Below are positions 2,768-45,959 of a stretch of DNA of 49,840 nucleotides, piece after piece; positions within the stretch are counted from its first letter, which is position 1; every line of letters begins with the position of its first letter. A model generated the notes under the pieces. That model ran no database searches. It saw only the letters and a list, made by a program, of their open reading frames with translations, and had not been told where the DNA came from. Origin of the DNA: Candidatus Eiseniibacteriota bacterium (GTDB lineage: Bacteria > Eisenbacteria > RBG-16-71-46 > SZUA-252); NCBI GenBank assembly GCA_031370645.1, contig JANMQV010000198.1, forward strand, positions 1 through 49,840. The letters run 5' to 3'. The position numbers and the translations under genes are program-made.

Positions 2768-2842
2768 GGCGGTGTAGCTCAGCGGTAGAGCAGGGGAATC
2801 ATAATCCCTTGGTCCGGGGTTCAAATCCCTGCGCCGCCACCA
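2768..2842 (+). tRNA. tRNA with CAT anticodon, most likely elongator tRNA-Met
   Basis: Cloverleaf: GGCGGTG/CGCCGCC acceptor stem, GCTC/GAGC D-stem, GGGGA-ATCATAA-TCCCT anticodon arm, TTCAAAT T-loop, encoded CCA. G1-C72 is paired, so not an initiator. Confidence 0.95.
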
Positions 2843-22464: not shown

Positions 22465-23475
22465 TCAGTATACCCCGACTTCCGGATCGAAGATCGGCGG
22501 GGTCAGCTCCACCATTGCTACCACGTCGAGGAGGTTGTGGTGGAAGACGGGAACGAGCCGGTGCGGCTCGCCCCGCTTTACGTACTCGTGGTAGTGGCCG
22601 GGGATCTCGGCGCCGTCCACGTCGCCCCCGCGTCGCCGACGAAGGATCCGCCATTCGAGGGTCTGGAGACGGCAGTTCGGGAGATGTCCCTTCCAACGCC
22701 GCCGCGCCATCCAGAGGAGATCGAGATGGGGATGGGGAAGCGCGAATGGTACGCGGTGGTGGACCGCGCGATCGTAGAGGAACGGCGCGTCAAAGGTCTT
22801 TCCGTTGAACGTGACGAGCGCGTCGAAATCACGAGCCACCCGCGCGACCTCCGCCAGGAGTGCGCGTTCCTCCGAGTAATCGCGGGCGAAGAGCTGGCGA
22901 AAGACGATGTTTCGATCCACCACGAACCCGAGCCCCACTAGGAAGACCGGCACTCCCGACAATCCGCACGTCTCGATGTCGAGGTAGAGAAGCCGGCGAT
23001 GTCCGAATCGGCGGAAGAGCCCGCGTTCCGGCGGATCGACGGCCGCCGCGAGATCCGGAAGATCGCGCACAAGGCGCGGGCCCTTCACTCGCGTGCGCGA
23101 TCGATTTCGGCGACGACGCGTGCGGTTCGCTTCGGCGGCGCGCTCGTCGTCGTCGTACGAGCCGCGGTCGAGCGCGGCGATCTTTCGGAGCAGCGGCATC
23201 GGCCGCTCGCCCAGGTCCGTGTAGAGGCGCTCGTGGACGAACAGCGAGCCCTCCTCGTTCGTGACGACACCGCCGGAGAGAACCTCCTCGATCGGGACCG
23301 CGAGGACCGTTCGTTCGCGGACAACGGCGCGGCGTGCCTCGGCCACGGCGCGCGCGACACTCGCGGCGCTCCCGCTAGCGCTCTTCTCCTTCAGCGCCCC
23401 CACGCCGCCGCGCCGGGCAGGCCCCTCCTCTCGAAAGAGATCGCCGATCTTCGCGCGGAGCGTCTTCGAGAGCAC
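22465..23475 (-). CDS. RNase H-like (DEDD) exonuclease, YprB/MrfB-like
   Basis: YLDIETCG, TFNGKTFDAPFL, HLDL, HNLLDV; GTG start overlaps the helicase TAG. Confidence 0.85.
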   Translation of the reverse strand: MLSKTLRAKIGDLFREEGPARRGGVGALKEKSASGSAASVARAVAEARRAVVRERTVLAVPIEEVLSGGVVTNEEGSLFVHERLYTDLGERPMPLLRKIAALDRGSYDDDERAAEANRTRRRRNRSRTRVKGPRLVRDLPDLAAAVDPPERGLFRRFGHRRLLYLDIETCGLSGVPVFLVGLGFVVDRNIVFRQLFARDYSEERALLAEVARVARDFDALVTFNGKTFDAPFLYDRAVHHRVPFALPHPHLDLLWMARRRWKGHLPNCRLQTLEWRILRRRRGGDVDGAEIPGHYHEYVKRGEPHRLVPVFHHNLLDVVAMVELTPPIFDPEVGVY

Positions 23476-25901
23476 TAGCGCCCCAGAAGTCGTCGAAGGA
23501 GGAGCGTCGTCGCGGCCTTGCTCGGAATCGGCCAGCCACCGTTCAGGTCGTAGTCCTGCTGCTGCGCGGGGCGAAGCACCGGCATGCCGACGCATGAGGG
23601 ACAGCCGAGTTCGCAGGGACAGTCCGCCGCCAGCGCGAGCGCGGACGAGAGTAGCTCTCCTACGATCGCGTAGCCGCGTTCCGAGTAGCCGAGCCCACCG
23701 GGATAGCGGTCGTAGACGAAGAGCGCCTGCTCGCCGAGATTGCTGCTGTTGAGAATCCCCCCGAGATCGGGCCGGTCGCACATGACGTGGAGCGGCAGGA
23801 GCGTGATCAGCAGATTCCGGATCCCCGACAATCCCTCGGCGGGATTGAGCCCCTTCACGCGCACCGCGTTCCGCGCCGCCTCGTCCGGGCGAATCCAGAA
23901 AGCCACCGTATCGAGACTGAGCCGCGGCAGTTCGAGCGGGTGATAGCCGATGGCGTCGAGACTCCGGAAGCGGATCTTCTTCATCGCCACCGTGGCCCAA
24001 TTCACATCTGCTTGCCCGAACCCGATCTCGGCGTCGCCGTATCGCTTCGTCTGCCGCGTCTCCAAGAGCCGAAGCCGCGTGTCTAGCACCGGCTGGGTGT
24101 AGTAGTCGACTTCGCGCGCCTCCACGTACGCCACCTTCTGCGCCAGGTCGAGTTCACGAACGAAGTAGGTGTTCCCCTCGTGGAGGTAAATCGCCTCGGG
24201 ATAGACGAGTTCGAGCGCGCTGATCGCATCGACATTCGCGATGACCATGTTCTCGCGCTTCGCATCGAGAATCGAATAGGTGTCGTCGGAGATCGTCCGA
24301 AGGCTCACCTTCCCGGCCGGATAGTCGGGCTGCGCCCAGTAGCGTCGGCCGTCGAGCGAAGTAAGTGTTCCCTCTTCCTCGAGAAGCGCCGCCAGGCGCG
24401 GTGCCCGGGCGCCGAAGAGCGCCTCGTCCTCGGGAGCCAGCGGCAGTTCGTACGCGGCGCAGGCGATGTGGGAGGCAAGCACGTAGGGATTCTCCGGATC
24501 GAGCACCGCGCTCTCCGGCGTCTGCGCGAAGAAGTACTCGGGGTGGCGCATGAGGTATTGATCGATCGGGTCGTCGTAGGCGATGACCACCGCGAGCGAG
24601 GCTCCCTGCGAGCGCCCCGCGCGCCCCGCCTGCTGCCACGTGCTCGCGATGGTGTTCGGGAAGCCGACCAAGACCGCCGCGTCGAGCGACCCCACGTCGA
24701 TCCCGAGTTCCAACGCATTGGTCGCGACCACGCCGCGGAGTTCCCCGTCGAAGAGGCGCCGCTCGATGGCGCGACGCTCTTCCGGCAAGTAGCCGCCGCG
24801 ATAAGGCGAGAGCCGGTCGGCCAGGCCGTCGGGGTCGTTCTCCAGCCGCTCGCGCGTGTATCGGTAGATCAATTCCGCCGCGATGCGAGACTTGGTGAAC
24901 GTGATCGTCTGGACGTCGTGCCGCATGAGGGAGACGAGAATCCGCTCCGCCTCCACCGAGGCGCTGGCGCGTCCCGGCGTGTCGCCGCCGCGCGGCATCG
25001 GGTTCCAGAAGGCGAAGAGCTTTGGCCCCCGAGGCGAGCCGTCCTCGTCCACCACCTTCACCTCATCACCCACCAGGAGTGCCGCCTGTTCGCCCGGATT
25101 TCGAATGGTCGCCGAGGAGAGGAGGAATTGCGGGTCGGCGCCGTAGTGCCGCGCGATCCGTCGAAGGCGGCGGAGAACATTCGCCACGTGTGAGCCGAAG
25201 ATCCCGCGATAGGTGTGCATCTCGTCCACCACGACGTAGCGGAGGTTCGAGAAGACGCGGCTCCAGCGGGAGTGATACGGGAGAATCCCCTGATGCAGCA
25301 TGTCGGGGTTCGTGAGAATCGCGTTCGCCTCCTCGCGGAGGCGCCGGCGCGCGCTGGTTGGGGTGTCCCCGTCGTAGGTGCCTGCTCGGAGCGTCGGGCG
25401 AAGCGCCGACGAGAGATCGCGCACTCGCTCAAGCCCACGGAGTTGATCCTGAGCCAGCGCCTTCGTCGGGAAAAGATAGAGCGCGATCGCCTCCCGATCG
25501 AGGAGCATACGCTCGAGGATCGGGAGGTTGTAGGCGAGCGATTTCCCCGAAGCCGTCCCGGTCGCCACCGCCACGTGCTCGTCCGCGCGCGCATGCTCGA
25601 TCGCCCGCGCCTGGTGGACGTAGAGGCGCTCGATCCCCTGCGCTTCGAGGAGGCGGCGGAGAGCGTCGGGAAGCGGTTCGCTCAGGTCGGCGTGGATCGC
25701 TTCCCGCGCGGGGAGATGCTCCAAGTGCGCCAATTCGTTCGACTGCCCGAGACCATGGACATCTTTCGGGCCGCGTGTGCGGGTCAGAAGTTTGGCCAGA
25801 AGTGCCTCGAACTCCGCCAGCGTCTCCGGCGCGCCGACGCTTCGAGGACGTTCGAAGAGCGTCGGAATTCCATTCGGGCGAAGCCGTACGTCATGGATCA
25901 C
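23475..25901 (-). CDS. DEAD/DEAH-box helicase with DUF1998 zinc domain, YprA/MrfA/Hrq1-like
   Basis: TGTASGKS, FPTKALAQDQ, TNPDMLH, DEMH, SAT, QQAGRAGR, C-terminal C..CPCELGCPSC. Confidence 0.93.
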   Translation of the reverse strand: MIHDVRLRPNGIPTLFERPRSVGAPETLAEFEALLAKLLTRTRGPKDVHGLGQSNELAHLEHLPAREAIHADLSEPLPDALRRLLEAQGIERLYVHQARAIEHARADEHVAVATGTASGKSLAYNLPILERMLLDREAIALYLFPTKALAQDQLRGLERVRDLSSALRPTLRAGTYDGDTPTSARRRLREEANAILTNPDMLHQGILPYHSRWSRVFSNLRYVVVDEMHTYRGIFGSHVANVLRRLRRIARHYGADPQFLLSSATIRNPGEQAALLVGDEVKVVDEDGSPRGPKLFAFWNPMPRGGDTPGRASASVEAERILVSLMRHDVQTITFTKSRIAAELIYRYTRERLENDPDGLADRLSPYRGGYLPEERRAIERRLFDGELRGVVATNALELGIDVGSLDAAVLVGFPNTIASTWQQAGRAGRSQGASLAVVIAYDDPIDQYLMRHPEYFFAQTPESAVLDPENPYVLASHIACAAYELPLAPEDEALFGARAPRLAALLEEEGTLTSLDGRRYWAQPDYPAGKVSLRTISDDTYSILDAKRENMVIANVDAISALELVYPEAIYLHEGNTYFVRELDLAQKVAYVEAREVDYYTQPVLDTRLRLLETRQTKRYGDAEIGFGQADVNWATVAMKKIRFRSLDAIGYHPLELPRLSLDTVAFWIRPDEAARNAVRVKGLNPAEGLSGIRNLLITLLPLHVMCDRPDLGGILNSSNLGEQALFVYDRYPGGLGYSERGYAIVGELLSSALALAADCPCELGCPSCVGMPVLRPAQQQDYDLNGGWPIPSKAATTLLLRRLLGR

Positions 25902-26884
25902 AGGAGTCCTTCCCCCTCGAGTAGGCGTCGCATCAATTTCGCTCCGCTCGCGGCCTGCCCCACGTGACAGTTGTTAAAGAAGACAAACGTCTTCTTCGCC
26001 TTCGCGGTCATCTCGCGGATCTTCCCGACCCACTCCTGCAATTCCGCCTCCGAGTAGAGGTAGTCGTAGCGGTCGCTCGACGTACCGGAAGGTCCGGGCG
26101 TGGGGGGTGCAGCGGTGGCGGCGAATAGAGGTCCGTACTCCGCGGCCGTCACCGGCTCGGCCGCCCGGCGCCGCGTCCCCTCCACACTCCCGCGCACCGC
26201 TCCACGCGACTCTCCACGCGAACCGTCGCCCCGATCGGGTCGCCCCCGTTCCGGATTTCGCCACCAATTCTCTTTGTTTCGCCCATGAAGTCGCACGTAC
26301 CCGATTCGTTCGGGTCCGGTGACGCGCGCGATCGGCGGCACGAGGCCGGGAAGATCGGGTTCGTCGACGCTCACGTATCCGATCCCCTCCGTCTCGAGCC
26401 GCTCCCAAACGCTCTCCTCCGCCCACGAGCGATGGCGGAATTCCACGAAGAGCGGTACTTCGGGGAGACGCTCCTTCAACGCGACGAGGAAGTTTTCGTT
26501 TTCGGCCGTCCGATGAAACGAGGTGGGAAACTGCGCCATGATTCCCTGCAACTTTCCCGCCGCCAGAATCGGATCGACCGCGCGCGCGAACACTCGGTAG
26601 AGCTCGGGGTCCAACGAGCGTGCGTGCGTCATGTCGTGGTGCGTCTTCACGACGAACTCGAACTCCGGCGGCGTCTTTCGTTCCATGGCCTGAAGCGTCG
26701 CCGGTGGCGGGATGCGGTAGTAGGTAGAGTTCACTTCAACGGCCGGAAATTCCCGCGCGTAGAAATCGAGCATCTTCCCGCGCTCGATCCCCGGCGGGTA
26801 GAAGCGACCGGCCCAGTCGGGGAAGGAGTAACCGGAAGTTCCGAGAAGAATGCGCGGGCGCTCCTCACCTATCTCACTCATCAC
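25898..26884 (-). CDS. DUF72 (YecE/YunF) family protein
   Basis: GTSGYSFPDW..FYP, VEVNSTYY, QFP, VEFRH, YVRLHGR, YDYLYS, FFNN. Confidence 0.92.
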   Translation of the reverse strand: MMSEIGEERPRILLGTSGYSFPDWAGRFYPPGIERGKMLDFYAREFPAVEVNSTYYRIPPPATLQAMERKTPPEFEFVVKTHHDMTHARSLDPELYRVFARAVDPILAAGKLQGIMAQFPTSFHRTAENENFLVALKERLPEVPLFVEFRHRSWAEESVWERLETEGIGYVSVDEPDLPGLVPPIARVTGPERIGYVRLHGRNKENWWRNPERGRPDRGDGSRGESRGAVRGSVEGTRRRAAEPVTAAEYGPLFAATAAPPTPGPSGTSSDRYDYLYSEAELQEWVGKIREMTAKAKKTFVFFNNCHVGQAASGAKLMRRLLEGEGLL

Positions 26885-28097
26885 GGCCCCACTGGAGCGC
26901 CCCGGCCCGAACGAGCACCGAGTCGCCGAACTTGTCCCGCAGCGAATCGACCGCCTCGGTCATCTTCCGGCGGTGCTGATCGGCGTCGAAGAGCTCGCGC
27001 TGCTTTCCCGCTCCGGAGACGAGCGAGGACATGGAGACTCCGATCAACCGAACCGGCCTCCCATCCCAGTTCTCGTCGAAGAGCGCGTTCGCCACTTTGA
27101 AGATCTGCGTCTCGTCGTCGGTCAATTCGGGGAGCGCGCGCTGTCGGATGGTGGTCTTGAACGCTTGATCGCGATACTTCAGCGAAACGACGCGCCCGAC
27201 GTATCCGTCCGTCCGCATGCGCCGCCCCACTTGATCCGACAAGCGAAGCAGGTGCGCGGCGATTCGGGCACGATCGGCGAGATCCTTGTCGAGCGTGAAC
27301 TCGTGACCCATCGATTTGACCGGCACACCCTCGTAGAACGGGATCACGGGCGAGTCGTCTTCACCCCAGGCGGCATCCCTCATTCGATCGCCGTTCAGAC
27401 CGAAGTGATACGTCAGGAACTCGCGCGGAAATTTCGCGAGTTGCCCCGCCGTTCGAATGCCGAGTTTCCCGAGCGACTCGGCGGTCTTCTCCCCGATTCC
27501 CCATAGGTCCTGAACCGGGCGAGGCCAGAAAATCTCGCGGTACATCTCGTGCGTGAGCGCGGTGAGCCCTCTCGGCTTCTTGAGCCCGCTTCCCATCTTC
27601 GCGATGTACTTGTTCGGCCCGATTCCGATCGTCGCGGAGAGTCCGACCCGCCTCCAGACTGTCTTCTGCATGGCTCGAGCGATGTCGCCGGCGGCGTTCA
27701 AGACAGCGGCGGGATCGCGCGTATCGACATTACCCGCTCGCAGCGCTTCGACCAACCGAGGCGCCTCCGTCAGATCGAGAAACGCCTCGTCGATCGAGAA
27801 CGGCTCGATGATGGGCGTGAACTCTTTGAGTGAGTCGAGAACCTGAAGCGAGACGTGGACGTACTTCTTGGGGTCGCCTTCGAGGAAGGTGGCGTTAGGG
27901 CAGAGCCGAGCCGCCGTGGCGATCGGCATTCCCGCGTGGATTCCGAACTTGCGCGCCGGGTAATTCGCGGCCGAGACGACGCCGCGCCGCGTGATGTCGC
28001 CCCCCACCACGAGCGGCTTCCCGGCCAAATGCGGATTGAGTTTCTCCTCGACCGACGCGAAGAAGGCGTCCATGTCGAGATGGGCGACGATGCGCAC
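26874..28097 (-). CDS. dinB: DNA polymerase IV (Y family)
   Basis: HLDMDAFFASVE, YPARKFGI, SIDEAFLD, LWGIG, VRLIGV, clamp-binding-like QRELF. Confidence 0.95.
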   Translation of the reverse strand: MRIVAHLDMDAFFASVEEKLNPHLAGKPLVVGGDITRRGVVSAANYPARKFGIHAGMPIATAARLCPNATFLEGDPKKYVHVSLQVLDSLKEFTPIIEPFSIDEAFLDLTEAPRLVEALRAGNVDTRDPAAVLNAAGDIARAMQKTVWRRVGLSATIGIGPNKYIAKMGSGLKKPRGLTALTHEMYREIFWPRPVQDLWGIGEKTAESLGKLGIRTAGQLAKFPREFLTYHFGLNGDRMRDAAWGEDDSPVIPFYEGVPVKSMGHEFTLDKDLADRARIAAHLLRLSDQVGRRMRTDGYVGRVVSLKYRDQAFKTTIRQRALPELTDDETQIFKVANALFDENWDGRPVRLIGVSMSSLVSGAGKQRELFDADQHRRKMTEAVDSLRDKFGDSVLVRAGALQWGRDE

Positions 28098-28147
28098 GGC
28101 GTGTCATCCCTCCGTCCACAACCCGGTTGATCCGTTCACGAATCTGA

Positions 28148-28176
28148 ACGATACTGCACAAATGTGCAGTTGTCAA
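28148..28176 (-). promoter_or_regulatory. dinB-operon promoter with putative LexA operator (28153-28170)
   Basis: TTGACA-17-TATCGT on the minus strand; palindrome ACTGCACAAATGTGCAGT (+ strand) fills the spacer. Confidence 0.88.
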
Positions 28177-28231
28177 GGGGAGGGGGCTACGGGGTAGCAT
28201 CGGCGGCTCGATCCGAGGGGAGGTCGTGACC

Positions 28232-29071
28232 ATGAAGCCGGAAGAGCCTCGAAACGCGCCGCCGCAGGAAGTCGTCGAGTATTACAGCCGTTATCCCGAG
28301 GAAGGGCGGCTCGGCCAGGGCGCGTTCCGTCTGGAATTCGAGCGCTCCAAGGAACTTCTACAGCGCCTCCTCCCCCCGGCGCCCGCGCGCGTGCTCGACG
28401 TCGGCGGCGCGGCCGGAGCCTACTCCGCCTTCCTGGCCGGCCTCGGCTACGAAGTCCATCTCGTCGACCTCTCGTCCCGCCTGGTGGAAGAGGCGCGGCG
28501 GCGAAACGCCGACCTGAAGCGGCCGATCACGTCGCTCACGGTGGCGGATGCGCGTCATCTCCCCCAAGAAGAGGGCTCCGCCGATGCGGTCCTCGTGATG
28601 GGTCCGCTCTATCACCTCCCCGAGCCAGCCGATCGTTTGGAGACACTCCGCGAGGCGTATCGTGTGCTTGCCTCCCCGGGGATCGTGATCGTCGCGGCCA
28701 TCTCCCGGTACGCCTCCACCCTCGACGGCATGGCGAGCCGTCTCGCGTCCGACCCGGAGTTCGTCGCGATCCGCGATCGAGACCTGGTCGACGGACAACA
28801 CCGAAACGCGACCGGGAAGGACTACTACTTCACGACGGCCTACTTCCACCGGCCCGAGGATCTGCGTGCCGAGTTGGAGATGGCTGGTTTTCGCGACGTG
28901 GCGGTGCTCGGCGTCGAGGGGCCGGGTTGGTTGACTTCCGACTTCGAAGCTCGTTGGGCTGACGATGTCGAGCGGAACGATTTGATGCGGATTGCGCGCG
29001 CGCTCGAATCGGAGCCCTCCGTCGTGGGAGTCAGTTCGCATCTATTCGGGGTCGGGAGAAAGACGCAATGA
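28232..29071 (+). CDS. class I SAM-dependent methyltransferase
   Basis: VLDVGGAAG motif I, VADARHLP, MGPLYHL. Confidence 0.88.
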   Translation: MKPEEPRNAPPQEVVEYYSRYPEEGRLGQGAFRLEFERSKELLQRLLPPAPARVLDVGGAAGAYSAFLAGLGYEVHLVDLSSRLVEEARRRNADLKRPITSLTVADARHLPQEEGSADAVLVMGPLYHLPEPADRLETLREAYRVLASPGIVIVAAISRYASTLDGMASRLASDPEFVAIRDRDLVDGQHRNATGKDYYFTTAYFHRPEDLRAELEMAGFRDVAVLGVEGPGWLTSDFEARWADDVERNDLMRIARALESEPSVVGVSSHLFGVGRKTQ

Positions 29072-29685
29072 GCGCGGCGGCTCGTCCCAACGATGCGGCC
29101 GCCGACGCGAGGCCGCGCTGCCCGTGGCCCTACGAAAAGCCGCACTGGCGCGACTACCACGATCTCGAATGGGGCACACCGGTCCACGACGACCGCGTGC
29201 TCTTCGAATTCCTCGTATTGGAAGGCGCGCAAGCCGGGCTCTCGTGGGACACCATTTTGAAGAAGCGCGCCGGTTACCGCGCCGCGTTCGCGGGCTTCGA
29301 TCCCAACAAAGTCGCGCGTTTCGACGCCCGCCGTCGCGCTTCGCTGATCAAGAATCCGGAAATCGTTCGCAACCGCCTGAAGATCGAGTCGGCGACGACA
29401 AACGCGCAGGCGTTTCTCGCCGTGCGGAATGAATTCAAGACGTTCGACCGTTACCTATGGGACTTCGTGGGAGGAGCGCCGCTTCAGAATCGCCGCGCGT
29501 CCATGCGAGAGGTCCCCGCGAGCACGCCCGAATCCGACGCCCTCAGCAAGGACTTGAAGAAGCGAGGTTTCCGATTCGTCGGCACCACGATCATCTACGC
29601 CTACATGCAGGCAGTGGGGCTCGTGAACGACCATGTCGAGACCTGCTTCCGCCACCGCGAGTTGGGCGGAAAGGAGCGCTCATGA
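29068..29685 (+). CDS. tag: DNA-3-methyladenine glycosylase I
   Basis: RCPW, YHDLEWG, LEGAQAGLSW, RNRLKI, QAVGLVNDH..C. Confidence 0.96.
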   Translation: MSAAARPNDAAADARPRCPWPYEKPHWRDYHDLEWGTPVHDDRVLFEFLVLEGAQAGLSWDTILKKRAGYRAAFAGFDPNKVARFDARRRASLIKNPEIVRNRLKIESATTNAQAFLAVRNEFKTFDRYLWDFVGGAPLQNRRASMREVPASTPESDALSKDLKKRGFRFVGTTIIYAYMQAVGLVNDHVETCFRHRELGGKERS

Positions 29686-30302
29686 TCCTCGAACCAGGGC
29701 TCGTCCCGCCGGAGCGCATCGGGGAAACGGTGGCGGCCCTCTGCGACGCGTTCCATGACTACCCCGTCATGACCTACATCGTGGGAAACGCCGGAGCGGA
29801 GTACGATCGAAATTTGCAGGCGTTGATTCATCTCTTCGTGTCGGCGCGCGTGCTCCGCGGGGAGCCAATCCTCGGCATCGAGGATGGAGGCCGCCTGGTC
29901 GCGATCGCGACGCTCACGCCGCCCGGCGAGCGCCCCATTCCATCATCGTTTCCCGCGCTCCGAGAAGCGCTGTGGGAGCTTCTCGGTCCGGAGGCAAAGG
30001 CTCGGCACGAAGTGCTCTATGAGATCTGGATGCGCTACACGCATCCCGGCCTCCATTATCATCTCAACATGCTTGGAGTTCGCGGCTCGTACGCAGGACG
30101 CGGACTCGGCGGCCGGCTCCTCCGCGAAGTTCACGCGCTCTCGAGTGCCGCGACGGACTCGGAGGGCGTCACGCTGAGCACCGAGGATCCGAAGAATGTG
30201 CCGCTCTACCAGCATTGCGGCTACGAGATCGTGACGCACCACCGCGTGACCGACAATCTGGAGACGTGGCAATTCTTTCGCCCCGACGACGAGCCGCGGT
30301 GA
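29682..30302 (+). CDS. GNAT acetyltransferase
   Basis: AFHDYP, LNMLGV..GRGLGGRLL, NVPLYQHCGY; ATGA overlap with tag. Confidence 0.85.
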   Translation: MILEPGLVPPERIGETVAALCDAFHDYPVMTYIVGNAGAEYDRNLQALIHLFVSARVLRGEPILGIEDGGRLVAIATLTPPGERPIPSSFPALREALWELLGPEAKARHEVLYEIWMRYTHPGLHYHLNMLGVRGSYAGRGLGGRLLREVHALSSAATDSEGVTLSTEDPKNVPLYQHCGYEIVTHHRVTDNLETWQFFRPDDEPR

Positions 30303-30330
30303 TCCCGTTTCCCCGAACGAAGGGCCGTTC

Positions 30331-30798
30331 ATGTACCTGGTGCTGAAACTCGTGCACATCTCCGCGGTGATCGCGTTTCTCGGAAACATCACGACCGGGC
30401 TCTTCTGGCACCGGCACGCCGCGCGCACGCGGGATCCCAAACTCCTCGCGCACACAATGGACGGCATCATTCGAAGCGATCGCCTCTTCACGATCCCCGG
30501 CGTCATCGTGATCACCTCGGCGGGCATCGCCGCCGCGATCGCCGGTGGCCTCCCGCTTCTCCACACGAAGTGGATCGTCTGGACGCTGGCGCTCTTCACG
30601 ATTTCCGGAATCGCGTTCTCCGTCCGGGTGGCGCCGCTGCAACGGCAATTGCGGGACATCGCGCGGGATGGTGTGGATTCTGGCGCGTTCGACTTCGCGC
30701 GCTATCACGCGGTGGCGCGCCGTTGGGAGATCTGGGGCGCGATCGCGCTCGGCGCCCCGCTCGTGGGACTCGTGCTGATGGTGCTGAAGCCTCAATGA
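30331..30798 (+). CDS. DUF2269 family membrane protein
   Basis: YLVLKLVHI N-terminus, four TMs, C-terminal LMVLKP. Confidence 0.8.
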   Translation: MYLVLKLVHISAVIAFLGNITTGLFWHRHAARTRDPKLLAHTMDGIIRSDRLFTIPGVIVITSAGIAAAIAGGLPLLHTKWIVWTLALFTISGIAFSVRVAPLQRQLRDIARDGVDSGAFDFARYHAVARRWEIWGAIALGAPLVGLVLMVLKPQ

Positions 30799-31325
30799 CC
30801 ATCGTCGAAACGGAACGCCTTCGGCTTCGCTGGCTCACGCCGAACGATGCCGCCTTCATGCTCGAGCTCGTGAACGACCCCACCTGGATCGAGTTCATCG
30901 GCAAGCGAAACGTGAACACGGTCGAGGAGGCGCGCACCTACATCACGACGAAGTACGTCGCGGATTACAACGGTCGCGGCTTCGGGCTGAACCTCGTGGA
31001 GTTGAAGGATTCCGGAACGCCGGTCGGGATCTGCGGGCTGATCAAGCGGGAGACGCTGGAGGACGTGGATGTCGGCTTCGCGTTCCTTCCCCGTTACGCC
31101 GGGCAAGGCTACGCCACGGAGTCCGCCGCCGCGGTGCTCGAGCATGGGCGCCGCGCTCTTGGAATCGGGCGAATCGTAGCGATTACGCTTCCCCACAACC
31201 TCCGCTCCATCCGAGTTTTGGAGAAGGCGGGGCTTCGGTTCGAGCGGATCATCCGCATGGCGGGCGACGACGAGGACTTGGCGCTCTACGCCCAGGAGCC
31301 GAATGAGGAGTGGTTGCGGAAGTAG
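30795..31325 (+). CDS. GNAT acetyltransferase (RimJ/RimL type)
   Basis: ETERLRLR, DVGFAFLP..GQGYATE, NLRSIRVLEKAG. Confidence 0.9.
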   Translation: MTIVETERLRLRWLTPNDAAFMLELVNDPTWIEFIGKRNVNTVEEARTYITTKYVADYNGRGFGLNLVELKDSGTPVGICGLIKRETLEDVDVGFAFLPRYAGQGYATESAAAVLEHGRRALGIGRIVAITLPHNLRSIRVLEKAGLRFERIIRMAGDDEDLALYAQEPNEEWLRK

Positions 31326-31347
31326 CGGCGAGGATTCGCCGGCCGCG

Positions 31348-31599
31348 CTACCCCTCCATCCAGACCCGCGTCAACTGCCAGGTCATCTCGCGCGTGTCGT
31401 AGCGGATTTCGTAGTAGTCGGCGTTGTCCGCGAGGAGCGCGAAGTAGTGGATCTTGTTCTGCCCCTCGTGGCGAACCCAGTCGCCGGTCACCTTGGCGAT
31501 TTTCACCGTCTTCTGCTTCCACCGAAAACGAATCGGCTTCATGACGCCGCCGGCGAAGACGGTGATGACTTCGATGGGATCGTGGATGGACTCGATCAT
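31348..31599 (-). CDS. small conserved-looking protein, DUF6504-like
   Basis: 83 aa: DPIEV..PIRFRWKQK..W..HYF..YEIRYD..WQLTRV pattern; behind an operator-bearing promoter. Family assignment by recollection. Confidence 0.7.
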   Translation of the reverse strand: MIESIHDPIEVITVFAGGVMKPIRFRWKQKTVKIAKVTGDWVRHEGQNKIHYFALLADNADYYEIRYDTREMTWQLTRVWMEG

Positions 31600-31713
31600 G
31601 AAGTACCCGCTGTCTGCAGTAGGGAACGAATGTGCATGAATCATCCGTCGAGCCTCCGGAAACCGACCGCTTCCTTGCCTGCCGCTCCTTCGATTCCTCT
31701 TCCCAACAGAAGG

Positions 31714-31742
31714 AAGATACTGCACATTTGTGCAGTTGTCAA
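31714..31742 (-). promoter_or_regulatory. promoter with putative LexA operator (31719-31736)
   Basis: TTGACA-17-TATCTT on the minus strand; palindrome ACTGCACATTTGTGCAGT. Confidence 0.88.
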
Positions 31743-31804
31743 GGGGCGGGGGCGAAAGAGCGTATCGGTAGGGCTAACGAGGCCATGGAAAAGGGGATAG
31801 AGCG

Positions 31805-32320
31805 ATGACCGAACGGGTGCCTCCGTATGGCGCCACGCGAGCGGCGGCGGACGACGCGGCGCGTGATTTCGATTTCTGGATGGGGCGGTGGAAGATCGTG
31901 AACAAGCGACTCATGAAGCGGCTGGCAGGCTCCACCGAGTGGGAGGAGTTCACGGCGACCTGCCGCGCCTGGCCGCTCCCCGGCGGCATCGGCAACTACG
32001 ACGAGTTCGTGCCCGACACCTGGCGCCCCGGCTTCGTCGGCATGTCGCTTCGAATCTTCAATCCCGAGACGAGGCTCTGGAGCATCTACTGGGTCGACAA
32101 CAAAGTCGGCATCCTCCAGCCTCCCGTGGTCGGGCGATTCGAGAACGGAGTCGGAATCTTCGACGGCCCCGACGAGTTCGACGGCAAGCCGATCGTCGTG
32201 CGGTTCACGTGGTCGGAGATCACCGCGACAGGCGCGCGATGGGAGCAGGCTTTCTCCCTCGACGAAGGAAAGACGTGGGAGACGAATTGGGTGATGATGA
32301 TGTCGCGGCTGCCGGAGTGA
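31805..32320 (+). CDS. DUF1579-like hypothetical protein
   Basis: DFDFWMGRW, WSIYW, RWEQAFS.D.GKTWETNW. Confidence 0.7.
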   Translation: MTERVPPYGATRAAADDAARDFDFWMGRWKIVNKRLMKRLAGSTEWEEFTATCRAWPLPGGIGNYDEFVPDTWRPGFVGMSLRIFNPETRLWSIYWVDNKVGILQPPVVGRFENGVGIFDGPDEFDGKPIVVRFTWSEITATGARWEQAFSLDEGKTWETNWVMMMSRLPE

Positions 32321-32337
32321 CGAACACGGAGCGAATC

Positions 32338-32721
32338 ATGAGAGATATCGCGATCTCCCTGGAGCATCGGCCCGGAGCGCTCGCGGAGATGGGCGAAGCC
32401 CTCGGCCGCGCCGGCGTGAGCGTGGAGGGCGGCGGCGTCTTCGCCGTGAACGGAGTCGGGGTGGCGCACTTTCTTGTCGCCGACGGCGCCGCCGCTCGGC
32501 GCGCACTCGAGGCGGCCGGGATTCGCGTCGACGCCGAGCGCGAGGTGGTGACCGTGCGGCTAAGGCAGGAGGAGCCGGGCCAACTCGGGAAGATCGCCCG
32601 CCGCATGGCCGACGCCGGCGTGAACATCGAGGTGCAATACAGCGACCACGACCATCGGTTGATTCTGGTGGTGGATGACGTCGAGAAGGCCGAGGCAGTG
32701 GCCCGGGAGTGGACAACGTGA
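32338..32721 (+). CDS. tandem ACT-domain protein
   Basis: HRPGALAEMGEALGRAGVSVE and EPGQLGKIARRMADAGVNIE. Confidence 0.85.
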   Translation: MRDIAISLEHRPGALAEMGEALGRAGVSVEGGGVFAVNGVGVAHFLVADGAAARRALEAAGIRVDAEREVVTVRLRQEEPGQLGKIARRMADAGVNIEVQYSDHDHRLILVVDDVEKAEAVAREWTT

Positions 32722-33890
32722 CGCCACCGGCGCCATCCATTCCGGGGAACGCAGAGCCCCTCCCCGATCAGCGGGCGAAGTTCGATGTGGATGGCGCGGT
32801 CGCCTATTTCAATACCGCCGCGTTGTCGCCGGTGCTTCGGGGCGTTCGGGCCGCCGGTGAGGCCGCGCTCGCCTGGCGATCGAAGCCGTGGGGCATCGCC
32901 ACCGCCGATTGGTTTTCCGGCGGCGAGACGCTCCGCTCGCAGCGCGCCGCATTGCTCGGAGCTCACCCCGACGAGATCGCGCACATTCCCGCCACCAGTT
33001 ATGGACTCGCGACGGTCGCGCGGAATCTGAAGGCGAAGCCGGGCGACCGCGTGCTGGTCCTGGCCGGCGAATTTCCGTCGAACTACTACACGTGGAAACG
33101 ATTCGCGCTTCGAACGGGGGCGGAACTGCTCGTGGTCGAACGCGAGCCGGGGCAAGAGTGGACGGAGGCGATCGTCGCCGCGATCGACGAGCGCGTGGTC
33201 GTTGCCTCGGTCCCGAACGTCCACTGGACGAACGGCGCGTTGATCGACCTGACGCGCGTGGCGGCCGCGGTTCACGAAGTTGGGGCGGCGTTCGTCATCG
33301 ACGCGAGCCAGTCGGTGGGCGTCATGCCGCTCGATGTCCGCGCCCTCCGCCCCACGGCCGTGGTGACGGTCGGCTACAAGTGGCTCCTCGGCCCGATGGG
33401 CTTCGGATTCCTCTACATCGACCCAACGCTTCGGGACGGCGAGCCGCTGGAAGAGAATTGGATTTCGCGTGCGGGAGCCGACGACTTCACGAGTCTCATC
33501 GACTACCAGGACGTTTACATGCCGGGCGCCCGGCGTTTCGACGTCGGGCAGCGCCCGAATTTTCATCTCGTGCCGATGGCGATCGCCGCGATGGAGCAGA
33601 TCCAGGAGTGGACCGTTCCCCGGATCGGCGCGACCTTGGCGAAGCTGACACGGGAGATCGGGGAGCGAGCGACGGAGATCGGGGTGACGGTGCTCCCCGC
33701 CGAACAGCGGGCGCCGCACATCATCGGTCTCGAACTTCCGGTGCCGGCCGCCCGGCGCGTGGCCACCGCTCTAGAAGCCGCGAAAGTCTACGCCAGCAGG
33801 CGCGGCTCCTCCCTCCGCATCGCCCCCCATCTGCACAACAGCCCCGAGGACGTCGACCGGCTCCTATCCGCAGTCGCCTCCGCGTTGTAG
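32718..33890 (+). CDS. class V PLP-dependent aminotransferase-fold enzyme
   Basis: YFNTAA, IDASQSVG, GYKWLLGP (PLP lysine), LRIAPHLHN. Confidence 0.88.
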   Translation: MTPPAPSIPGNAEPLPDQRAKFDVDGAVAYFNTAALSPVLRGVRAAGEAALAWRSKPWGIATADWFSGGETLRSQRAALLGAHPDEIAHIPATSYGLATVARNLKAKPGDRVLVLAGEFPSNYYTWKRFALRTGAELLVVEREPGQEWTEAIVAAIDERVVVASVPNVHWTNGALIDLTRVAAAVHEVGAAFVIDASQSVGVMPLDVRALRPTAVVTVGYKWLLGPMGFGFLYIDPTLRDGEPLEENWISRAGADDFTSLIDYQDVYMPGARRFDVGQRPNFHLVPMAIAAMEQIQEWTVPRIGATLAKLTREIGERATEIGVTVLPAEQRAPHIIGLELPVPAARRVATALEAAKVYASRRGSSLRIAPHLHNSPEDVDRLLSAVASAL

Positions 33891-33908
33891 CGGCAGGGCC
33901 TTTCGTGG

Positions 33909-33947
33909 TTGACGTGACTCGGTAAATACGTTACTATTGGGTCACAT
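33909..33947 (+). promoter_or_regulatory. promoter of the SRPBCC-ArsR unit with probable ArsR operator
   Basis: TTGACG-17-TACTAT; imperfect inverted repeat ACGTTAC-N6-GTCACAT (33928-33947) over the -10. Confidence 0.65.
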
Positions 33948-34009
33948 AAGCGTCGGTGCGCGGGGACCAGATGAGTGCCCTCGCTCCGCGCTCCTAAGGA
34001 GGAATGGCC

Positions 34010-34450
34010 ATGACCCAAGGCACATTGGAAGACCTCGTCCTCGACATCGAGCAAACCCTCGAGATCAAAGCGGCGCCCGGCGACGTCTACGAAGGTCTGC
34101 TCCGGCGCCTTTGCAACATTGAGAATGAGGAAGGAAAGCCGAACATCGTCCTGAAACTCGAGCGCTGGCCGGGCGGTCGTTATTTCCGCGATCTGGAAGG
34201 CGGCACCGGGCACCTCTGGGGGATCGTCCAGTCGATCAAGCCACCGACCCTGATCGAGTTCTTCGGCCCGATGATGATGTCCCACCCGGTGGCGGGCCAC
34301 CTGATCGTCCGCCTCACCGCGATCCCTGGAGGAACGAAAGTCGCCTTCCGGCACCAGGTGTTCGGGATCATTCCGTCCGACTTCCGCGAGGGACTGCCTC
34401 AGGGCTGGGGCAAGATGCTCGCCAGTCTCAAGCGGGATGTGGAACGGTAG
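34010..34450 (+). CDS. SRPBCC/AHSA1 domain protein
   Basis: LEIKAAP..VY, LERWPGGR..RD, GW..ML..LK; AAGGAGG RBS; next to ArsR. Confidence 0.82.
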   Translation: MTQGTLEDLVLDIEQTLEIKAAPGDVYEGLLRRLCNIENEEGKPNIVLKLERWPGGRYFRDLEGGTGHLWGIVQSIKPPTLIEFFGPMMMSHPVAGHLIVRLTAIPGGTKVAFRHQVFGIIPSDFREGLPQGWGKMLASLKRDVER

Positions 34451-34465
34451 ACCGGTGCGCATGGC

Positions 34466-34789
34466 GTGAAGCGCGACCTCGACCCCGTCTGGAAGGCGCT
34501 CTCCGATCCCACGCGGCGAGAGATCCTCGATTTACTGAAGCAGGGGCCCCGCACCACGACTGAGATTGTGGAGCGGGTCCCCGGGCTCTCGCGGTTCGGC
34601 GTGATGAAGCACATTGGGGTCCTTCGCGACGCGGATCTGGTTCGGACGCGGGAGGAGGGACGCCAAGTCGTCAATAGCCTCAACGTGACGCCAATACGAA
34701 TGATTTACGACCGGTGGGTCAGCGGGTATCAGGATCTTTGGGCGAAGAACCTCGCCTCGTTGAAGCGATCGCTGGAGGAGGAGAAGTAG
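34466..34789 (+). CDS. ArsR/SmtB family transcriptional regulator
   Basis: KALSDPTRREILDLL, SRFGVMKHIGVL..ADLV..R.EGR. Confidence 0.92.
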   Translation: MKRDLDPVWKALSDPTRREILDLLKQGPRTTTEIVERVPGLSRFGVMKHIGVLRDADLVRTREEGRQVVNSLNVTPIRMIYDRWVSGYQDLWAKNLASLKRSLEEEK

Positions 34790-34813
34790 AAGGGACGTCG
34801 AACCGCGTCCACC

Positions 34814-35614
34814 TCAGCTATCCAGCCTTCGAAACACTCCGACCACCTTCCCTGCCACTCGCACGTCGGGGTCCGACGGCCGGACCTCGATCGGCTCGTA
34901 TGCATCGTTCTCCGGGAAAAGCAGAAGCTTGTCCTTGCGCGGGAAGTAGCGCTTCACCGTCGCTTCGTCGCCGATCACCACCACCGCGATATCGCCGCTC
35001 TTCACGGCGGTGTCGTGGCGGACGATGACGACGTCGCCGTTGAAGATCCCCGCGTTCTTCATGCTGTCTCCGCGCACGCGGAGCGCGAAGTGCTTCCCGC
35101 CCCGGGCCATAGTGCCGTCGATGACGAACGTGTCTTCGACGTGCTCCTCGGCCAGGATCGGCGCCCCCGCGGCCACACGGCCGATCAGGGGGATCTCCAG
35201 ATAGTCGCGCTCGGGGCGCTTCGCGCCGGCGCGGGAGAGTGGGGGGCGAGGACCGGGCACATCCTCACGCCCGCGGGACGGCGTCGTGCGTGACGCCGGC
35301 TCGAGCGAACGCCCCTCGATCGCCTGGAGCTCGATGCCACGCGAGGTCCAACGGTCTCGGCGGATTTTGCCCGCCTGCTCCAGGCGATCGAGGTAGTAGC
35401 GCACGCCATTCGTGGAAGCGATACCGAAGGCCGCGCCGATTTCCCGGAGCGTCGGCGGCCGGCCGCTCTCGTGCAGTGAGGCGGCGATGTACTGGAGGAT
35501 CGCCTCTTCGCGGTCGGGGCCGGGATCGGTGATGGCCGCGAGTGTCGGAGTGGGACGCATCCCGGACTTCGGCTTCGCTTTCAGGCCCCGGTGGGGCTTT
35601 GGCTTCTTGTTCAT
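34814..35614 (-). CDS. lexA: SOS repressor LexA
   Basis: wHTH PPTLREI..STNGVRYYL; cleavage site GRVAAG; catalytic Ser GDSM and Lys ATVKR. Confidence 0.95.
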   Translation of the reverse strand: MNKKPKPHRGLKAKPKSGMRPTPTLAAITDPGPDREEAILQYIAASLHESGRPPTLREIGAAFGIASTNGVRYYLDRLEQAGKIRRDRWTSRGIELQAIEGRSLEPASRTTPSRGREDVPGPRPPLSRAGAKRPERDYLEIPLIGRVAAGAPILAEEHVEDTFVIDGTMARGGKHFALRVRGDSMKNAGIFNGDVVIVRHDTAVKSGDIAVVVIGDEATVKRYFPRKDKLLLFPENDAYEPIEVRPSDPDVRVAGKVVGVFRRLDS

Positions 35615-35621
35615 GCCTGAG

Positions 35622-35650
35622 AAGATAGTGCACATTTGTGCACTTGTCAA
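35622..35650 (-). promoter_or_regulatory. lexA promoter with putative autoregulatory operator (35627-35644)
   Basis: TTGACA-17-TATCTT on the minus strand; palindrome AGTGCACATTTGTGCACT; ATG 7 nt after the -10. Confidence 0.9.
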
Positions 35651-35842
35651 GGGGGTGGGTGAAAGAGGGCGGAAATTCGGTCGATTCGCTTGCGTGGTAG
35701 GCACTTCTTCGGGCACGCTCGAAAGCATCGTTCCCCGCGACGAGTCCTGGTCGGGGAGACCGGCTCATTATGGCGGGGTACAGCGGCACACAGCCCTCAG
35801 GTTCGGTGGGTTGGGTGATGCAGCGTCGTCTCTCTCTATCGC

Positions 35843-36571
35843 ATGAGGTTTCCCTTGTCCCACGTGGCGTTCCCCGTAGTTACTCGAGTCCCGATTTGGC
35901 TCTTGGCACTCCTAGTCGCGCCCGAGATCGGCGGCGCCGCTGCAGCCGTGACACCGCCTGCACCGCATCGGCAGGCAGAACACAGCGTTGGTTCCCGCGC
36001 GCGGGCGTTGGAACCCGCCGCCTCGGCCTTCGAGGACCTTGCCGACCCACAAGAGTCCGGCAATTCATCTCGCGCCGAGCGGACGCTCAAGACGGGCGAG
36101 CCTCGCATCCACCGCGCCAGGGCGTTGCTCGGTACCTCGGCGGCACTTCAGGTCGACTCTCTCCTCGCGGCGGTGAAGACCGCCATCCATGAGAACAGGA
36201 TTCCCGAATCGGCGCTGGCCGCCGCGCAGGGCTATCGCGTCATTGTCGAGGCGGCATGGCCTTCACCGTCCGCCCCGGCGCGCCAACTCGCCATGCTCGA
36301 CTACGTTGGATATCGGACCGCCGCGCTGGCGGCGATTGCGCCGGTGGATTGGGAGTCGGTAGAGAATTCAACGAGCATGGGACATCAGCAGTGGACGCTC
36401 GTACGAGCGCGAGTGCATTCCCCCGGACTTCGGGACGCGATGGATACGGCGATGCTCACGCTTGGGGAAGCCGCGCACTCGCGTTATCCGAAGATGACGC
36501 GCCTCTCGGCCCAACTTGTTCTCGACCTCGTGGATTTGGTGGAGAGCGACCAGGCTCGGGGCCGGCCATGA
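35843..36571 (+). CDS. exported hypothetical alpha-helical protein
   Basis: 242-aa ORF with hydrophobic N-terminus and normal globular composition; stop overlaps the next ATG. Confidence 0.65.
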   Translation: MRFPLSHVAFPVVTRVPIWLLALLVAPEIGGAAAAVTPPAPHRQAEHSVGSRARALEPAASAFEDLADPQESGNSSRAERTLKTGEPRIHRARALLGTSAALQVDSLLAAVKTAIHENRIPESALAAAQGYRVIVEAAWPSPSAPARQLAMLDYVGYRTAALAAIAPVDWESVENSTSMGHQQWTLVRARVHSPGLRDAMDTAMLTLGEAAHSRYPKMTRLSAQLVLDLVDLVESDQARGRP

Positions 36572-44204: not shown

Positions 44205-45959
44205 ATGAACTGCACCCTCGTGCCGTCGCGGCGTCGCCGCTATTTCCGGACGTTCCCAGCGATCTTGGCGATCGCACTCTTCGCGACTACCGCTCTTCCC
44301 CTCGCGAATCCAGCGCAGGCCGCGACCTCGCGGGCGGTCCCCATCGTGCCCGATCCACTTTTCGTGCCCGGCGAACTCCTCGTCCAGTTCCGCCCCGAAG
44401 TCGCGAAGTCCGACCGCGCCCGCGTGGCGCGAGAAGGAGGGGCCACGCTCTCGCGCGAGGTGACCGCGGACGGACTCGTGAAGGTGCTGCTAGGGCCCGG
44501 GGACACGGTGGAGGGCGCCGAAGCGCGCTTCCGCGCTCGCGCCGACGTCGAGTACGCGATTCCGAATCTCCGCGCCAAGGCCTTCTTCACGCCGAACGAT
44601 TCGCTCATCACCTCCAAGGATATGGACCTCGCCTGGAATCTCCGGAGCGTCCATGCCTACGACGCCTGGGACATCCAGACGGGCGATCCCGATATCGTCG
44701 TCGCCATCGTCGACACGGGCGTCGCCTATGAGGATCACGAAATTCCCGCGTATGAAAGCGCTCGGCTCTGGCCGGGGACGACGAGGTACAAGCGCTCGCC
44801 GGACCTGCCGGGACCATTCGTGCCGGGATGGGACTTCGTCTACGGCGATGCCTTCGCGGACGACGACAACGGACACGGCACGACTGTCGCCACCATCGTC
44901 GCCGGCGCCCCGAACAACATCGCCGGGAGCGCGGGGATCGCCTTCGGCGTGACGATCATGCCGATCAAGGTGATCGACTGGCAGCGCGACTCCGAGATGT
45001 CGTTGATCACGAGCGGCATCCGATTCGCGGCCGAACATGGCGCCGACATCGTGAATCTCTCGCTCGGCTTCCCGCCGCTCGACACGTTTCGGGGCCTCGG
45101 CTACACCGAAACTCAGATTCGCGAAATGTTCCGCCCGCTCCGCGAGGCCGTGAACTACGCGCAGCGGCGCGGCTCGATCCTCGTCGGGTCGGCGGGCAAT
45201 TTCGACGCCAGCGAAGTCAGCCTTCCCGCTGGCTACCCTGGCGTGATCGCCGTAGGCGCCACCGATCCCGACGGCCGGCGCTCTTCCTACTCCTCGTACG
45301 GCCGCGACCTCGACTTCATGGCCCCGGGCGGCGACTTCACGGATCTCAACAACGACCACGTTCAGGACGCCGTCTTCGTTCTGTCGATCAAACCGAACCG
45401 CTCCGAGGGCTCGCTCGCGAAGCCCGACTCTTTTGGCTGCTTCCCCTTCTTCGGAACCTCAGGCTCCGCTCCGCACGTCTCCGGCGCGGTGGCGCTCTTG
45501 ATGTCGAAGGGATACCGCTCCCAGGGCGCCATCGAGCAGACGCTTCGCGACACCTCGGTTCGGCCGCCCGACCGGCCGACCGGCCTCGACGCCGAATACG
45601 GCGCGGGCCTCATTCAGCTCGACGCCGCGCTCCGCGCGCGGATGCCGAAGAGCGCGGGCTCCGCGACGACGGAAGCAACGGGAACGATCGCCGCGCGCCT
45701 TCTCTCGCGGAATCCCGCGCGAGGCGACGTATCGATCGCCTATCGAAGCGAGCGGCCCGGCCGCGTGCGCGTGCGCGTCTTCGATGTGAGGGGAGCGCTG
45801 GTGCGGACCATCGAGGATCGCGACGTTCCGGCCGGCGAGCAGCGCGCGCGATGGGATGGCCGAGACGACGCCGGTGGCCACGCGGCCGCGGGAGTTTATC
45901 TCTTCCGCGTCGAGACCCCTGCGGGCATCGCCACGCGCAAGGTCGCCTTCCTGCGTTAG
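44205..45959 (+). CDS. exported S8 serine peptidase with C-terminal FlgD-Ig-like domain
   Basis: IVDTG, GHGT, GTSGSAPHV; tail FDVRGALVRT..WDGRDD.G..GVY. Confidence 0.9.
   Translation: MNCTLVPSRRRRYFRTFPAILAIALFATTALPLANPAQAATSRAVPIVPDPLFVPGELLVQFRPEVAKSDRARVAREGGATLSREVTADGLVKVLLGPGDTVEGAEARFRARADVEYAIPNLRAKAFFTPNDSLITSKDMDLAWNLRSVHAYDAWDIQTGDPDIVVAIVDTGVAYEDHEIPAYESARLWPGTTRYKRSPDLPGPFVPGWDFVYGDAFADDDNGHGTTVATIVAGAPNNIAGSAGIAFGVTIMPIKVIDWQRDSEMSLITSGIRFAAEHGADIVNLSLGFPPLDTFRGLGYTETQIREMFRPLREAVNYAQRRGSILVGSAGNFDASEVSLPAGYPGVIAVGATDPDGRRSSYSSYGRDLDFMAPGGDFTDLNNDHVQDAVFVLSIKPNRSEGSLAKPDSFGCFPFFGTSGSAPHVSGAVALLMSKGYRSQGAIEQTLRDTSVRPPDRPTGLDAEYGAGLIQLDAALRARMPKSAGSATTEATGTIAARLLSRNPARGDVSIAYRSERPGRVRVRVFDVRGALVRTIEDRDVPAGEQRARWDGRDDAGGHAAAGVYLFRVETPAGIATRKVAFLR

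Follow-up and report, generated by a model that had tools for sequence, protein, structure and literature searches.

Among the described LexA systems that come closest to the one reported here, that of Fibrobacter succinogenes is said to use the box TGCNC-N4-GTGCA, a consensus that was not confirmed in the literature searched, and Pseudomonas putida reportedly carries a lexA2-imuA-imuB-dnaE2 cassette and two cohabiting LexA regulons. According to the available extracts of PMC3091678 and PMC9578287, LexA has been characterised in F. succinogenes, and the Gram-positive (Cheo) box of Bacillus subtilis is CGAAC-N4-GTTCG, with 33 genes in its regulon. The window analysed here is a stretch of 49,840 nucleotides from a Candidatus Eiseniibacteriota bacterium (positions 1 to 49,840 of the forward strand of contig JANMQV010000198.1, assembly GCA_031370645.1). 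It contains three palindromes of the form TGCAC-AWWT-GTGCA, each in a promoter-like context; the sites are conserved across the phylum and co-vary with the clade of the LexA protein. Judged from these letters and those of related genomes, the palindromes are very probably the operators of a LexA repressor encoded in the same window, here called LexA1, and sit on three promoters left by the split of one operon. Binding, repression and damage induction by LexA1 we infer, and likewise the direction in which the operon was split.

All three palindromes, 18 bp each, were read exactly at the positions where a sequence-only reading of this DNA had put them (Table 1). That reading also had each copy lying in a 17-bp spacer between TTGACA and TATC(G/T)T on the minus strand, ahead of dinB, a small gene and lexA itself, and the promoter consensus scan and the gene calls agree. 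Run over positions 26500-36500, the scan returned four promoter-like sites against a shuffle mean of 1.0. Three of them are the operator-bearing promoters, in which the operator fills the 17-nt spacer between -35 and -10 on the minus strand. Matches to TGCAC-N4-GTGCA with at most one mismatch number four in the window, namely the three exact sites and a one-mismatch match at 44211; the mean in shuffled sequence was 0.61, and 0 of 100 shuffles reached four. Alignment of 81 nt around each copy defined a shared module of about 45 nt, which begins at a C-rich stretch ahead of the -35, stops shortly after the -10 and is flanked by divergent sequence.

The source assembly (G000 in our comparison, where G-numbers denote genomes, L-numbers loci and f-numbers families) is a 3.0-Mb metagenome-assembled genome of Candidatus Eisenbacteria (FCB group) in 247 contigs, 65.9% G+C and 95% complete. 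An uncultured, FCB-related lineage had been predicted, and the nearest LexA loci are indeed those of metagenome-assembled genomes of Candidatus Eisenbacteria. The exact box lies directly upstream of lexA in 17 of 23 LexA-related loci, comprising all 15 titled Eisenbacteria together with L006 and L016; in L017 and L019-L023 no box within one mismatch was found directly upstream of lexA. Of 61 phylum genomes sampled, 26 contain the strict motif TGCACAWWTGTGCA, with 1-3 copies each, and 0 contain its reversed control (this tally counts the unpublished genome G015, no locus of which was used). A lexA, DUF6504 or dinB-like (Y-family polymerase) gene adjoins the box in 23 of the 26 box loci, the exceptions being L025, L026 and L031. 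Radical-SAM genes were seen downstream of the boxes in L026 and L031.

Promoter geometry is preserved along with the box. At 27 of 36 distinct sites sampled across relatives, a -35-like word, TTG[AC][CT], stands at a constant offset from the box, which bears out the fixed geometry proposed from the three window promoters, where the box lies between -35 and -10. C/G and A/T flanks often lengthen the box to 16-18 bp. Immediately outside the core, the flank position is symmetric at 22 of the 36 sites and asymmetric at the other 14. The asymmetric set includes the lexA boxes of L002-L004, the closest relatives, and flank symmetry is therefore not required. Of the compensatory C>G/G>C change that had been described in the lexA box, the swap itself is present, but the asymmetric sites show that no general constraint maintains it. 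The G...C flank pair of the window lexA box is found in L001 too and may reflect a second change by which a single lineage regained symmetry.

Two LexA paralogs are present in the source genome and in most of its family, and the type of box tracks LexA clade and recognition helix. In a maximum-likelihood tree of 59 distinct sequences (quick search), 34 palindrome-associated LexAs form one group with those of L017 and L027 (SH-aLRT 90), and the second paralog, LexA2, falls in a separate, long-branched clade (SH-aLRT 100). The exact box is found upstream of lexA in 35 of the 36 loci of the palindrome clade, at a distance of about 395 nt in L027; in the 36th, L017, the equivalent promoter slot holds a version with 3 mismatches. 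Together with the 23 of 26 adjoining genes, this supports by comparative genomics the earlier claim that LexA regulates itself and dinB through TGCAC-N4-GTGCA. The segment aligned to the recognition helix of E. coli LexA reads STNGVRY in all sampled palindrome-associated LexAs except that of L016 (STNGVRS), SLNAVAK in LexA2 (SLNSVSK in L062), and STRAASD in the box-less LexAs of families f3 and f4. This co-variation of box type with helix is the strongest indirect evidence for LexA1 as the protein that would bind the palindrome. An element containing ATTAGATT lies about 100 nt upstream of the box-less lexA in three loci of family f3 (L071, L077 and L084) and may be a third type of LexA box in the phylum.

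In the source genome lexA2 heads a cassette on another contig (Table 1). It is followed by a 155-aa open reading frame (ORF) without a Pfam match, by a Y-family protein whose catalytic motifs are apparently disrupted, probably an inactive PolY, and by a DnaE2-like polymerase. All 12 relatives with upstream sequence carry in their LexA2 promoter a direct repeat, TTCACC-N5-TTCACC (period 11), and no palindrome; the repeat sits in the promoter spacer. In a search for the repeat through the rest of G000 and the closed genome G054, only the lexA2 promoter looked real. The other exact match apparently lies inside a tRNA gene, as judged by eye, and a match in G054 with one mismatch and an AT-rich spacer falls within a long ORF; both were set aside. 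The palindrome had been taken for the SOS box of the lineage, which is upheld for LexA1 and does not extend to LexA2 with its direct-repeat box. More distant lexA genes in other families (35-41% identical to LexA2) show the same arms around GC-rich spacers, again set between a TTGAC -35 and a -10 that starts with TA. In L058-L067, from several genera, the LexA2 start codon is preceded by a conserved GC-rich leader of about 90 nt, which lies some 20-130 nt downstream of the promoter. It could be a structured RNA; Rfam at gathering score gave no match on the leaders of L059, L061, L062 and L065, and on the window plus these four LexA2 loci nothing beyond one tRNA.

Several observations weigh against assigning the palindromes to a LexA1-controlled SOS system. 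The 10-base core has 3 exact sites in the whole assembly, all in the window, against about 3.2 expected from mononucleotide composition; the bare core is at the level of composition and is not over-represented genome-wide. The node that unites the box-bearing LexAs lies below the 95 mark in a tree made by quick search only. No classical broad SOS regulon is predicted, recA, uvrA and uvrA2 being without a box. And the genome has a second LexA. Because the core count matches the expectation from composition, the functional case rests on context and conservation and not on number: the non-random traits of the three sites are their A-W-W-T spacer, their common promoter register, their span of 7.5 kb and their conservation in relatives.

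The presence of two LexA-type repressors in one cell raises the question of whether LexA2 binds the palindromes, instead of LexA1 or besides it. We regard this as highly improbable: LexA2-type loci have the direct repeat in their own promoters, 12 out of 12, the LexA2 recognition helix differs, and the palindrome is also found in families whose genomes show a single LexA match. Slightly less improbable, and still very unlikely, is control of the same genes by a transcription factor outside the LexA family. A gene for an ArsR-type helix-turn-helix protein does adjoin lexA, but it is encoded on the opposite strand, and no such gene was observed beside the box in other loci (only seven window proteins were queried). 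Moreover, lexA is always associated with the box, even far from the DUF6504-polymerase operon, as in G031, and the box type follows the recognition helix of LexA, neither of which fits an outside factor. One palindrome, that ahead of the small gene, was scored as terminator-like, with a 7-pair stem and a weak T-rich tail, as might be expected if the palindromes were structural or mobile repeats, either hairpin terminators or elements of the REP/MITE kind. Yet there are three copies only in 3.0 Mb, every copy lies within a promoter in the same register, only one of the three is terminator-like, and different families retain the sites at orthologous promoters, so that we give this the least credence of all.

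The regulon predicted for LexA1 is small and cassette-like, with three transcription units in G000, a view drawn from site counts in G000, G054 and G031 and from the negatives at recA and uvrA. A position-weight scan of G000 scored the three sites at 28.5-32.9 bits and the next match at 16.0 bits, with none between; weak sites could be missed, since exact-core sites were the basis of the matrix and the left half was used for pruning. Twenty-four one-mismatch core matches in G000 were rejected as operators, having GC-rich spacers and no promoter context. The search of genome and relatives that the sequence-only reading had suggested gave a divided answer: exact sites ahead of lexA, DUF6504 and dinB, but upstream of recA, uvrA and uvrA2 best core matches with 3-4 mismatches out of 10, equal to those in 500 random windows. 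The closed genome G054 has two matches to the N4 pattern, one at lexA and one in a coding region with a GC-rich spacer. G031 has five, located at lexA, at a DUF6504-PolY-DnaE2 operon, at a second DUF6504 gene, upstream of mraZ and in a coding sequence. The site upstream of the mraZ homologue (G031:C1:1221469, L093) is an exact box with CTGCAC/GTGCAG flanks.

The arrangement in the window becomes clear when it is set beside its relatives. In five loci (L028, L044, L045, L048 and L049) lexA, DUF6504 and dinB are consecutive behind a single box, and in the closed genome G054 the lexA operon extends to DUF72, mrfA and mrfB. In the window the lexA, DUF6504 and dinB operon genes keep the order and strand that they have in relatives, with two opposite-strand gene blocks intervening. 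The block between lexA and DUF6504 holds a 171-aa ORF, a class-V aminotransferase, an AHSA1-like gene and the ArsR-type gene; that between DUF6504 and dinB holds a methyltransferase, a Tag glycosylase, two GNATs and DUF2269. Every fragment has its own copy of the promoter-operator module of about 45 nt, and in L001, whose LexA is 95% identical, lexA is likewise separated from the next box. Because the single operon is present in several families (f1, f8 and partly f10), it is taken as ancestral, which would make the split the derived state.

LexA1 (266 aa) has the N-terminal DNA-binding domain, C-terminal S24 peptidase, Ala-Gly site and Ser/Lys dyad of a LexA repressor, and its best matches in PDB are LexA chains. 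A VAAG cleavage segment, a GDSM serine and a TVKR lysine are read in its translation. Two further traits mark the LexA1 proteins of the family: a basic extension at the N-terminus, about 30 residues in length, and a linker joining the DNA-binding domain to the peptidase domain that, at about 45 residues, is unusually long. The lexA mRNA is probably leaderless, because the ATG lies 7 nt past the -10 and the box-to-start distance of 28 nt is found again in L001-L004 and L008-L011, loci whose match starts with residue 1. The RNA sequencing runs that were located contain only 5-7% of the words sampled and are stored as contigs, a form that does not reveal transcript starts. DinB is predicted from its residues to be an active Y-family polymerase, its catalytic Asp and Glu being invariant across relatives. 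The features are collected in Table 1. Divergent from the dinB promoter, genes for a SAM-methyltransferase and 3-methyladenine glycosylase I (Tag), at 28226-29685 on the plus strand, begin 56 nt away from the operator; L039, too, has a methyltransferase gene that diverges from dinB.

Table 1. Positions of the operators, promoters and genes discussed (window coordinates unless a contig is named)
Feature	Position	Strand	Details
LexA operator copy 1	28153..28170	no strand	exact core match; ahead of dinB
LexA operator copy 2	31719..31736	no strand	exact core match; ahead of 98-aa DUF6504-like gene
LexA operator copy 3	35627..35644	no strand	AGTGCAC-ATTT-GTGCACT on plus strand; in lexA promoter spacer, likewise in relatives' lexA
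dinB operon promoter	28148..28176	-	TTGACA-17-TATCGT, 10/12 matches
98-aa gene promoter	31714..31742	-	TTGACA-17-TATCTT, 10/12 matches
lexA promoter	35622..35650	-	TTGACA-17-TATCTT, 10/12 matches; -10 ends 7 nt before ATG
lexA (LexA1)	34814..35614	-	LexA DNA-binding PF01726, 48.4 bits; S24 peptidase PF00717, 110.4 bits
98-aa DUF6504-like, all-beta protein	31348..31644	-	Pfam DUF6504, E 2.9e-4, below cut-off
dinB	26874..28097	-	three Y-family domains; D8, D10, D103, E104 conserved
DUF72 gene	25898..26884	-	Pfam; start overlaps dinB stop; order repeated in G054, L039
MrfA-like helicase	23475..25901	-	DEAD, Helicase_C, HRQ1 winged helix, MrfA Zn-binding domain; start overlaps DUF72 stop; order repeated in G054
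MrfB-like RNase_H_2-fold exonuclease	22474..23292	-	limits are those of tblastn match, not a fixed start; 68% identity to G054 RNase_H_2 protein
ArsR-type helix-turn-helix gene	34466..34789	opposite to lexA	adjoins lexA
tRNA gene	2768..2839	+	Rfam RF00005, 67.9 bits
LexA2 cassette (L056/L057)	G000 contig C107, 1..5348	-	lexA2 5' end cut by contig end; own promoter off contig

The small protein encoded behind the second operator scored 21.5 bits against the Pfam model PF20114 (DUF6504), which has a cut-off of 24.2. Among 13 relatives, 11 match the same model at E up to 0.01, the best at 4.5e-6; of 14 control genomes, only Caulobacter vibrioides has a match. An AlphaFold2 model from a 13-row alignment is all-beta, with seven strands and a pLDDT of 87. 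A profile search against PDB sequences gave a single match, at E 0.94; Foldseek with the model gave none at E up to 0.001, the best VIA-align Z being 5.6, and neither comparison of folds yielded a convincing match. Complex prediction for DinB with the 98-aa protein gave no answer (score 0.00). The neighbours of DUF6504-like genes are PolY and DnaE2-like genes, and in family f2 (L087 in G031, L088 in G002) the box is followed by genes for DUF6504, an active PolY and a DnaE2-like polymerase, in that order. A second DUF6504 gene of the source genome (contig C113:14083-14406, minus strand, 72.5 bits) is at a contig end, with coding-like sequence before it and no box nearby.

These traits recall ImuB-C. 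The available part of a recent survey (Timinskas et al., NAR 2026, PMC12926913) describes ImuB-C as a beta-barrel without PDB relatives and reports stand-alone ImuB-C proteins encoded beside an active PolY, with or without DnaE2. The likeness to those pairs (PMC12926913) lies in a small beta-rich protein without a PDB relative, encoded beside an active Y-family polymerase, and in the DnaE2-like polymerase that comes next in the relatives of family f2. The 98-aa protein is probably ImuB-C-like. The equation of DUF6504 with ImuB-C does not come from that paper, in the available text of which (PMC12926913) the name DUF6504 has 0 occurrences; nor was the name found in the literature searched. No DUF6504-like C-terminus was found in the Y-family protein of the LexA2 cassette, by hhalign (probability 0.2%) or Pfam. 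The same part of PMC12926913 confines the DnaE2-[ImuB-C]-PolY-RecA type to Actinobacteria and leaves Eisenbacteria unmentioned. If DUF6504 is ImuB-C, the Eisenbacteria of family f2 would widen that range beyond Actinobacteria.

In the mechanism that we propose, a LexA1 dimer on the 14-16 bp dyad would fill the spacer between -35 and -10 and keep RNA polymerase off three promoters. The units repressed would be lexA itself, by autoregulation, the DUF6504/ImuB-C-like gene, and the repair operon dinB-DUF72-mrfA-mrfB. DNA damage would then lead, through RecA-stimulated self-cleavage of LexA at the Ala-Gly site by the Ser/Lys dyad, to the release of all three units. Their present layout would have arisen when an ancestral one-box operon was split by the two opposite-strand blocks, each fragment receiving a copy of the promoter-operator module.

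A wider reading, which is possible and which we hold with rather less than even confidence, joins these pieces. The Eisenbacteria would have had an ancestral LexA-autoregulated damage-tolerance cassette (lexA, ImuB-C-like, dinB, DUF72, mrfA, mrfB), which in this genus was broken in three by the insertion of unrelated genes, the module being duplicated for each fragment. The two LexA paralogs, one on a palindrome and the other on a direct repeat, would not cross-react, and each would govern only its own error-prone polymerase cassette, with recA and uvrA outside both.

Set against the described systems, the locus has the features of a LexA operator: a dyad upstream of lexA, overlap with the core promoter, and sites ahead of damage-tolerance genes, which in the window are dinB-DUF72-mrfA-mrfB and DUF6504 and in relatives DUF6504-PolY-DnaE2 and radical-SAM genes. 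The box reportedly used in Fibrobacter has the same half-site letters and 4-nt spacing, and its host too belongs to the FCB group; L083 has TGCCC in one arm, compatible with the N of that unconfirmed consensus. The present system differs in its phylum, in the fixed position of the box in the spacer between -35 and -10, and in a box often 16-18 bp long. The P. putida cassette, from what is said of it, is alike in being a lexA-headed, autoregulated error-prone polymerase operon in a cell with two LexA paralogs and different boxes. The LexA1 cassette differs from it in having an active DinB, a free-standing DUF6504, DUF72 and MrfAB-like proteins and no ImuA, ImuB or DnaE2, and in being broken into three promoters in the source genome. 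LexA-headed polymerase cassettes and two cohabiting LexA regulons are, reportedly, known kinds. The Cheo box of B. subtilis shares the 5-nt inverted arms, the 4-nt, usually AT-rich spacer and the overlap with the promoters of lexA and repair genes; it differs in its arms, GAAC against TGCAC here, and in serving 33 genes, by the available part of PMC9578287, against three units here.

The LexA1 box would work like any LexA operator, an ordinary SOS switch notable for its split operon, and the general picture of SOS regulation is unchanged. No paper joining Eisenbacteria and LexA was found in the literature searched, and the present analysis describes, for a candidate phylum that lacks cultured members, its LexA operator. 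It offers natural examples of two processes, the co-variation of helix and box across three LexA clades in one phylum, and the fission of an operon with the regulatory module copied to every fragment. The DUF6504-like small protein constantly accompanies Y-family polymerases under LexA control and is a candidate for study. If the two-paralog cassette reading is true, the SOS response of this lineage would consist of two private polymerase switches, with no global regulon.

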